A DNA stretch of 64,000 nucleotides from an uncultured bacterium (GCA_964487845.1 CAZASK010000009.1:5-64004), one strand, 5' to 3'. Numbered from the stretch's first letter, positions 53,857-54,826 are shown. A program made the numbers and translations. The notes: generated from the letters alone by a model not told the origin.

Positions 53857-53928
53857 TCCGGGTTAGCTCAGTGGTAGAGCAGTGGACTGTTAATCCATTG
53901 GCCGCAGGTTCGAACCCTGCACCCGGAG
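53857..53928 (+). tRNA. tRNA-Asn (anticodon GTT)
   Basis: Acceptor TCCGGGT/ACCCGGA, anticodon loop CTGTTAA, T-arm GCAGG-TTCGAAC-CCTGC. Confidence 0.9.
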
Positions 53929-53980
53929 ATCTTGATATTCAGACAGCTACGACAAGCGTTGTAACTGTCACATTCTTCCA
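53908..53980 (+). repeat. direct repeat, left copy (tRNA-Asn 3' end plus 52 nt)
   Basis: GTTCGAACCCTGCACCCGGAGATCTTGATATTCAGACAGCTACGACAAGCGTTGTAACTGTCACATTCTTCCAT is repeated at 54748..54826, ~86% identical over the last 57 nt. Confidence 0.75.
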
Positions 53981-54013
53981 TAAAGTTAAAAACTTAAATA
54001 TTTTTTTACTTCG

Positions 54014-54316
54014 TCAAGTTAATCTAAGATTTAATCCTAACGCCATGCACAAAGAAACAAGAGTATGCCATTTAGGGTTACCTGTTCCTGAAAGAGTCTT
54101 ATAAAGGCTCTCTCTTCCTACATGTGCTTTTTTAGCCAAGGCGCCAATACCACCTTGCGCTTCAGCAACATTCCGTAGGGCGATGAGGAAAAGTTGTTGA
54201 GATTCTTGATCTCCTTTTAGGCTTTCTTCGAGGGCGGCATTTAAATAATCTACCGCTAGATCATGATCTTTCAATTTTTCAAGAAGCCATTCTTCATATT
54301 TTTTATTTTTTGCCAT
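54014..54316 (-). CDS. HTH antitoxin (addiction-module antidote, HigA-like)
   Basis: 100 aa. C-terminal HTH GIGALAKKAHVGRESLYKTLSGTGNPKWHTL. 14-nt overlap with the upstream toxin gene. Confidence 0.75.
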   Translation of the reverse strand: MAKNKKYEEWLLEKLKDHDLAVDYLNAALEESLKGDQESQQLFLIALRNVAEAQGGIGALAKKAHVGRESLYKTLSGTGNPKWHTLVSLCMALGLNLRLT

Positions 54317-54644
54317 GTTTTTTCTTCCTAGATTGATATTCTTTTAAATATTCTTTGGCTTGATCAATATCTCTAGACTGTGATCCCTTATATCCTCCGC
54401 AAAGAAGTAATATCACTTTTTGACCTCTTTTGGAGTAATAAATTCTTATTCCTGGATCATAATGGATTCGCAAATCTGCAATTTCGTCACCTAGCGACTT
54501 GCAGTCTCCGAAATTTCCCAGCTTTAGCCTAGCTAAACGAGCCAAAATCTTGGATTTGGTATGCGTTTCTCGAACGCTTTCAAACCACTCATCAAAAGGG
54601 TTGCGACCAGAAGAAGTAATGAAAAATTCAATCTCAAATTCCAT
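54303..54644 (-). CDS. RelE/ParE-superfamily toxin (addiction-module killer, HigB-like)
   Basis: 113 aa. RNPFDEWFESV...ARLARLKLGNFGDCKSLGDEIADLRIHYDPGIRIYY...VILLLCGGYKGSQSRDI pattern. Toxin-first gene order. Confidence 0.75.
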   Translation of the reverse strand: MEFEIEFFITSSGRNPFDEWFESVRETHTKSKILARLARLKLGNFGDCKSLGDEIADLRIHYDPGIRIYYSKRGQKVILLLCGGYKGSQSRDIDQAKEYLKEYQSRKKKHGKK

Positions 54645-54747
54645 ATAACCTTATTGTATCTCACAAGATACATTTAATGAAGGGAAGGGCCGAGCGGATG
54701 AAAATAAAATTTTTGGTAACTTTTGCTGGCAGTCTTTCCTCGGAAAA

Positions 54748-54826
54748 GTTCGAACTGTATCTAGTGTCTGGAGATCTTGAGATTCAGGTAGTTACGACGA
54801 GAGTTGTAACTGCCACATTCTTCCAT
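54748..54826 (+). repeat. direct repeat, right copy (degenerate tRNA-Asn 3' fragment plus flank)
   Basis: GTTCGAACTGTATCTAGTGTCTGGAGATCTTGAGATTCAGGTAGTTACGACGAGAGTTGTAACTGCCACATTCTTCCAT. Confidence 0.75.

Follow-up and report, generated by a model that had tools for sequence, protein, structure and literature searches.

In attP half-sites of serine integrases the zinc-ribbon-domain motif lies 5 bp further from the centre than in attB, as described for the LI integrase (PMC3783163), and the serine integrases of mycobacteriophages reportedly avoid tRNA genes (PMC9262239). Our literature search turned up no description of tRNA-targeting serine recombinases or of chlamydial examples. Here we analyse a tRNA-Asn locus in a 64,000-nucleotide stretch of DNA from an uncultured bacterium (GCA_964487845.1, CAZASK010000009.1:5-64004; hereafter the window), where a toxin-antitoxin (TA) pair lies between two copies of a direct repeat, the first of which starts in the last bases of the tRNA gene. 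We consider it probable, with room for doubt, that the TA pair is what has stayed intact of the cargo of an integrative element, one of the large serine recombinase (LSR) type that inserts at the 3′ ends of tRNA genes, here tRNA-Asn.

The tRNA-Asn(GTT) gene (53856-53929, plus strand), found by ARAGORN and as Rfam RF00005 with 74 bits, ends in ...CCCGGAGA and does not encode CCA. Its last 5 nt and 52 nt of downstream flank make up copy 1 of the repeat (hp1; 53925-53981, plus strand), while GGAGAT followed by chromosomal flank makes up copy 2 (hp2; 54770-54826, plus strand), with TTCGAA upstream of both. A preliminary description of this DNA, made from the sequence alone, had proposed that the tRNA-Asn end and 52 nt of flank recur here at about 86% identity. 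The repeat is real and its measured identity is 88% (50/57 over 57 nt), the precise local alignment being significant with a score of 43 vs 9.3 ± 1.4 (maximum 19) in 2000 dinucleotide shuffles. The T-loop sequence GTTCGAAC occurs just twice in the 64-kb window, at 53908 in the tRNA and at 54748, 22 nt before copy 2, and therefore the tRNA-like part genuinely belongs to the repeat. The shuffles and this uniqueness together rule out a chance similarity, and a dispersed repeat family is ruled out by the absence of any third copy from the window. A whole decayed tRNA at copy 2 was rejected as well: nothing upstream of copy 2 resembles the 5′ 52 nt of the tRNA (score 13, the shuffle mean being 14.5), and the genuine tRNA is the only one that Rfam reports at E ≤ 1. 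An integron cassette with an attC site was rejected by eye, given that there is no integron integrase and that the hairpin has no GTTRRRY-type core.

Each repeat copy contains a hairpin with a 12 bp stem (53942-53969 in copy 1, 54787-54814 in copy 2). All 4 stem differences between the copies retain or improve pairing, one of them being a change of A-T to G-C on both sides, and the predicted energy is −14.4 kcal/mol for copy 1 vs −22.7 kcal/mol for copy 2, copy 1 being the weaker. Relative to the consensus of copy 2 and its counterparts in two close strains (L012 and L015; related loci are given L numbers throughout), copy 1 has six private substitutions. The orthologs of copy 2, in L012 (54/57) and L015, differ from it in a way that tracks backbone divergence. 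From its private substitutions and weaker stem, copy 1 looks like a secondary or imported copy. Between the copies lie 766 bp (53982-54747), as the earlier estimate of ~770 bp had it, whose only genes are the overlapping toxin-first TA pair, the non-coding remainder amounting to 32 nt on one side and 103 nt on the other. The 32 nt form an AT-rich spacer (53982-54013) that separates copy 1 from the antitoxin stop codon and has a homolog in none of the related loci.

Both genes of the TA operon are intact and read from the minus strand, with the toxin first (54303-54644; 113 aa; RelE/ParE superfamily, HI1419 family, Gp49-like), the antitoxin second (54014-54316; 100 aa; helix-turn-helix, HI1420 family) and a 14-nt overlap of their open reading frames (ORFs). 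The toxin matches TIGR02683 (“upstrm_HI1419”) with 115.6 bits (cutoff 62.85) and Pfam Gp49 with 19 bits, under its cutoff of 23.9; the antitoxin matches TIGR02684 with 57.6 bits (cutoff 53.7) and PF21716 with 53.7 bits (cutoff 27). By these profile matches and this gene order, the pair is a type II module of the HI1419/HI1420 family with a HigBA-type layout. A sequence search for relatives with solved structures returned none for either protein, and scans of IMG/VR with the toxin and with the LSR gave no matches. The promoter and predicted operator occupy 54645-54686 (minus strand), where a TGTATC-N6-GATACA palindrome (54655-54672) lies over a TACAAT −10 box; the same palindrome is found 5′ of the homologous toxins in L007-L011. 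The −35 box (54690-54695) differs by a G-to-C change, reading TTCATT in the window vs TTGATT in L015 (other homologs have TTGAAA or TTGATA), which may weaken TA expression in the window.

Close strains were available as short ENA contigs reached through cluster look-ups. One of them, L014, is 98.1% identical to the window across 2857 nt (window 51074-53930) and its homology stops one base past the tRNA. Beyond that point a minus-strand ORF runs into the tRNA; it matches the integrase family phrog_95 (E = 2e-8) and, weakly, CcrB/CcrC in their C-terminal regions, and its homologs are fragments of 100-276 aa, several of them with a Zn_ribbon_recom domain or named as site-specific recombinases. 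According to these matches, the sequence after the tRNA in L014 is the 3′ remnant of an LSR gene. On the other side of the locus, L012/L013 are 92.6% identical to the window across 58074-55025 and keep copy 2, their TA allele differing from that of the window (DNA identity 68%, toxin of 114 aa), and L015 (93.8% across window 54820-54173) has the TA allele and copy 2 as in the window. The identity between L012 and the window falls stepwise, from 96-99% far from the site to 80-93% over the gene of a major facilitator superfamily (MFS) transporter and to 68% in the TA pair, as expected of a variable segment that is prone to recombination and has its anchor at the tRNA. The preliminary description had pointed to the tRNA-Asn locus of related genomes as the place to look for empty sites or for a larger island with an integrase. 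That comparison yielded the LSR remnant of L014, but neither an empty site nor an intact larger island was recovered for this exact locus among the relatives.

A metagenome scan with the L014 LSR fragment returned 44 loci. A full-length LSR of 498 aa is present in L016, with Resolvase, Recombinase and Zn_ribbon_recom domains and a coiled-coil; its final 13 codons lie inside a convergent tRNA-Asn and primase/helicase-like genes are found upstream. The LSR match ends 0-33 nt from a convergent tRNA gene in 19 of the metagenomic loci (tRNA-Asn in 11/19, otherwise tRNA-Gln, -Ala, -Asp, -His or -Arg), and this abutment of LSR ends on tRNA 3′ ends argues that the LSR family is directed at tRNA 3′ ends. 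Taking the window, its close strains and these loci together, the tRNA-Asn 3′ end is a real integration hot spot. TA pairs of the window's family stand beside LSR C-terminal remnants, within 1.7 kb and in like orientation, in the chlamydia-like loci L021, L029, L048 and L049, all four of which were retrieved by the LSR query and not by the TA. In L021 the antitoxin stop is followed by ~120 nt and then by the LSR remnant, and in L049 an antitoxin remnant is fused to the LSR tail and a second TA follows. L021 and L048 combine a disrupted toxin gene with an intact antitoxin gene, and in L015 the toxin is frameshifted as well. The suggestion that an island had been eroded down to its addiction module fits both the LSR remnant at the tRNA in L014 and these four TA-LSR neighbourhoods.

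What looks like tRNA in copy 2 is a mimic of the tRNA 3′ end (“A2 arm”; 54744-54775, plus strand) that reads AAAAGTTCGAAC-TGTATCTAGTGTCT-GGAGAT. Its TTCGAA-to-GGAGA spacing is 15 nt, vs 10 nt in the tRNA-Asn of the window and in every tRNA aligned. The same AAAAG-TTCGAA-N15-GGAGAT arrangement is found in the window, L012/L013, L015, L021 and L049, with a fixed spacer length and a variable spacer sequence; L048 has a decayed form (TTCGTA, 14-nt spacer). In L012/L013, L015, L021, L048 and L049 the mimic adjoins the TA promoter, an adjacency that spans TA alleles only ~60-65% identical in protein. Thus the tRNA portion of the second copy does differ from the tRNA, as noted earlier, but its supposed degeneracy is not decay: it is a +5-nt variant fixed in five other loci. 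Conservation of the mimic across such divergent TA alleles is, on these alignments, not what neutral decay of a displaced tRNA end would leave.

When all the tRNA-like ends are aligned they fall into two left arms and two right arms, which occur in 4/4 combinations with the switch point at GGAGA(T). The tRNA is joined to the hairpin flank in copy 1 of the window and in L021 at 11984. It is joined to the LSR end in L014, L016, L018, L020, L027, L035 and L043, with partial tRNAs in L017 and L021. The mimic is joined to the hairpin flank in copy 2 of the window, in L012/L013, where the junction is identical in type and place to the window's despite the different TA allele, in L015 and in L021 at 9122; it is joined to the LSR end in L049 and, in decayed form, in L048. 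By analogy with the 5-bp displacement in attP half-sites, the mimic would be an element-borne P arm of attP type and the T-loop-to-acceptor end of the tRNA (53908-53929) the B arm, a chromosomal half-site; the LSR gene end would then be the P′ arm and the hairpin flank the B′ arm. The shift is seen in the left arms, with TTCGAA at 15 vs 10 nt from GGAGA, and no shifted motif stands out clearly in the right arms. Copy 2 with its mimic (54744-54826) would thus correspond to an attR-like P/B′ junction, and the tRNA with copy 1 to an attB-like B/B′ junction. The latter would not be attL, because a plain attP × attB reaction would leave the tRNA-LSR end junction on the left, as in L014. The classic attL/attR signature given in the preliminary description is thus not supported, the recombinase family being serine and not tyrosine, the tRNA portion of copy 2 being a conserved mimic and the left copy appearing attB-like.

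The LSR ORF of L016 ends inside the tRNA (10462-10501; tail ...ANLRVWDSNPRPMD) and that of L049 ends inside the tRNA mimic (505-560; tail ...PDLRVVDILRTFSW...), and therefore integration would swap the C-terminal tail of the recombinase.

From these arrangements we infer a P half-site in the mimic, a crossover at the switch point, a TA pair carried as cargo and a separate origin for the second hairpin. The LSR of the element family would insert DNA at the extreme 3′ end of tRNA genes. Intact relatives would carry the LSR gene at one edge, reading outward with its last ~13 codons within the tRNA, and the TA module with its promoter at the opposite edge, beside the mimic arm with its 5 extra bases; the arms would recombine where the tRNA reaches its discriminator end, at GGAGA(T). 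The window would then have lost the recombinase gene and the original attL and gained a second flank copy, and the TA pair plausibly survived through counter-selection against loss of an addiction module. For the second hairpin we prefer an origin in which repair or recombination copied or imported the flank after attL was lost, from either attR or an empty allele; this is the weakest step of the scheme.

Several observations weigh against this explanation. The hairpin next to the tRNA is not made by attP × attB and would need an extra, unobserved event. As the preliminary description had stated for an integrase, the locus has no recombinase gene, and a tblastn search with the LSR as query gave no significant match across the 64-kb window; with the LSR absent here and present as a remnant in L014 and in full in L016, the window would therefore qualify only as a remnant. 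The intact LSR loci have no TA within ~9 kb, the intact elements have no far-end att repeat detectable in the DNA examined, and no intact element carrying a TA at its far end was found. L013 and L014 come from one assembly (ENA ERZ28614697), though perhaps not from a single genome. L017, L020 and L021 hold perfect 46-nt copies of tRNA positions 29-74 that lack the +5 shift, part of them attached to LSR remnants and part to host flank, and these copies do not fit a P-arm model. Finally, the closest homologs of the TA pair (77-86% protein identity, equal toxin length) are at unrelated chromosomal sites, with no tRNA or mimic arm; DNA homology to the TA cassettes of L007-L011 is limited to 54013-54686, and in L007-L010 no convincing flanking repeats, mimic arm or tRNA were found. 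The TA could therefore have come alone, and such distribution suggests that the module also moves, or survives, independently.

The loci with partial tRNA copies have further features. In L017 an array at tRNA-Asn (4765-16394) contains, besides two remnants of LSR C-termini, three incomplete tRNA copies (positions 30-74) and a pair of cargo genes present in duplicate (404/414 aa and 532/557 aa), which suggests segmental duplication via the tRNA repeats. A tyrosine integrase as the source of the 46-nt tRNA repeats was sought in the L020 island and none was found. A second small two-gene cassette recurs at the tRNA-Asn hot spot, in L021 (10700-11613) and L020 (2857-3740). The L020 cassette consists of a 114-aa ORF and a 180-aa ORF with a weak match to the nucleotidyltransferase family DUF2204 (E = 0.0093), and the L021 cassette of a 111-aa ORF and a second gene with in-frame stops, neither with a Pfam match. 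Many LSR C-terminal ORFs (~160-175 aa) begin near one common point.

The origin of the second hairpin is also where another scenario enters, namely capture of a ~0.85-kb TA minicircle with a mimic-hairpin (attR-type) junction by a single crossover in the hairpin flank beside tRNA-Asn. The crossover would be either RecA-mediated (Campbell-type) or LSR-mediated between sites of attL and attR type, and the 12% divergence of the repeat would reflect the distance between donor and recipient. Capture would account directly for the 52 nt by which the repeat outruns the tRNA and for the attB-like form of the left copy, and the 6 private substitutions of copy 1 are as expected from a more distant donor. 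Cassette exchange is also indicated by the TA alleles of the close strains, which are 68% identical vs 92.6% for the flank, the window allele being nearer to a TA pair at an unrelated locus (86% to L008). In addition, L021 has a topology like that of the window, with a different two-gene cassette (pseudogenised) between the tRNA-hairpin junction and the next junction, and therefore the process behind the arrangement is not unique to the window. Nevertheless, no circular form or donor arrangement was observed, generation of the circle needs a pre-existing structure of the same kind, and the scenario relies on the LSR-element origin of the mimic, which makes it a variant of our preferred explanation and not an independent one. 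As an account of the window we regard it as unlikely.

Two explanations that dispense with an LSR are far less probable. The T-loop is a known crossover sublocation for tyrosine integrases, and both the left edge of the repeat, which falls at the T-loop, and the repeat-TA-repeat topology would suit a classic tyrosine-integrase island in which the tRNA, its 3′ end supplied by the element, forms attL, the displaced and decaying host end forms attR, and the integrase has been deleted with the rest of the island. We hold this to be very improbable, given that no tyrosine integrase was seen at the site in any relative, where the recombinase remnants are LSRs; that the mimic keeps TTCGAA, GGAGAT and the 15-nt spacer in all but the decayed L048; that L049 joins the mimic arm to the LSR gene end and not to host flank; and that the L014 homology break falls past the last tRNA base and not in the T-loop. 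Even less probable in our view is that the 3′ region of tRNA-Asn was merely duplicated in place, for instance as a tandem tRNA that later decayed, with the TA lying between by chance and no mobile element involved. Doubling of the hairpin downstream of the tRNA in both the window and L021 speaks for it, yet the 5′ two-thirds of the tRNA leave no trace in copy 2, the mimic co-occurs with the TA promoter across several genomes and with LSR remnants in L048/L049, and the site is polymorphic for foreign DNA between 98%-identical strains.

The source organism is an environmental chlamydia. The named homologs of the neighbouring MFS transporter belong to Rhabdochlamydiaceae, Parachlamydiales and Chlamydiales metagenome-assembled genomes, at identities of up to 62%; the GTDB species representatives include no close relative of the window, and a contig scan with the MFS gene gave only a 32%-identical alphaproteobacterial match. 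The locus is flanked on the left by one MFS transporter (52546-53787, plus strand) and on the right by another (55075-56421, minus strand). A thiamine pyrophosphate (TPP) riboswitch (52378-52488, plus strand; 68.3 bits, which exceeds the Rfam gathering score) stands immediately 5′ of the left one and suggests that it is a thiamine-related transporter. Synteny of this upstream MFS gene was followed without success, its best homologs being ~60% identical and in unrelated contexts with no tRNA close by.

Between copy 2 and the terminator of the right-hand MFS gene there is a 168-nt element (54858-55025) with two 82-nt inverted arms and terminal inverted repeats GACCTCTTGCGTAATTAAGG, which looks like a miniature inverted-repeat transposable element (MITE). 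It is precisely missing in L012/L013, an empty site for this element; a 45-nt part of it matches the chlamydial contig L006, and the Logan contig L003 breaks within it. A second MITE-like family is present at 19698-19862, 26166-26331 and 49177-49341 (~165 nt, 87-96% identical, 37-nt terminal inverted repeats). Elsewhere in the window we found in-frame tandem repeats at 15406-17912 (105/210-nt periodicity across ~2.5 kb) and at 46686-46856 (9-nt periodicity of the CCAGTAGCT type, Pro/Val/Ala-rich, across ~170 nt), as well as a pair of 48-nt inverted repeats, 98% complementary and 37.5 kb apart (1-48 and 37546-37593), one arm of which is the window start.

A wider joint reading can be put forward tentatively, with less confidence than the LSR-element explanation of the window itself. 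Environmental chlamydiae and some other bacteria would host small LSR elements that target the last bases of tRNA genes, with attP within the 3′ end of the LSR gene and a +5-bp mimic, so that each integration swaps the C-terminal tail of the LSR. A HigBA-like TA by the P arm would stabilise the element, and repeated events and decay would build cassette-like arrays at tRNA-Asn; the attB-like/attR-like pair of the window could loop out via the 57-nt repeats as a mobilisable minimal cassette. Taken alone, the feature in the window is of a familiar kind, a decayed tRNA insertion scar that retains an addiction module. Less familiar is a serine recombinase family at tRNA 3′ ends together with a mimic having the half-turn offset predicted by serine-integrase structures. 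If true, the proposal would offer a natural, sequence-readable case of discrimination between attP and attB arms, it would add tRNA-directed serine integrases, which may be useful tools given that tRNA ends are conserved targets, and it would document how TA cassettes replace one another at a single hot spot in environmental chlamydiae, a poorly studied group.

Compared with described systems, the TA pair is like other HI1419/HI1420 pairs in that both proteins score above curated cutoffs, the toxin comes first, the genes overlap by 14 nt and a palindrome covers the −10 box; it is unlike them in the G-to-C change of its −35 box and in having no sequence relative with a solved structure. The islands linked to tRNA genes that carry tyrosine integrases and addiction modules share with this locus the tRNA 3′ end, a direct repeat that includes tRNA-like sequence, polymorphism between close strains and a TA module as the surviving cargo. 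They differ in their recombinase family and in having a displaced tRNA end instead of a mimic with altered spacing, and at this locus 52 nt of flank belong to the repeat and the left junction resembles attB. With LSR elements such as phiC31, Bxb1, A118/LI and SCCmec CcrAB the likeness is that relatives of the window encode a canonical protein with Resolvase, Recombinase, zinc-ribbon and coiled-coil parts at the element edge, and that the junctions can be read as combinations of B, B′, P and P′ arms that switch at a single point. On the left side, the distal motif of the putative P-type arm also lies 5 bp further out than in the B-type arm, as for the LI integrase (PMC3783163), with no clear counterpart of this shift in the right arms. 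Unlike them, the recombinase ORF ends within the tRNA or its mimic and the recombinase itself is gone from the window, and the target here is the 3′ end of a tRNA gene, which it reportedly is not for the serine integrases of mycobacteriophages (PMC9262239).

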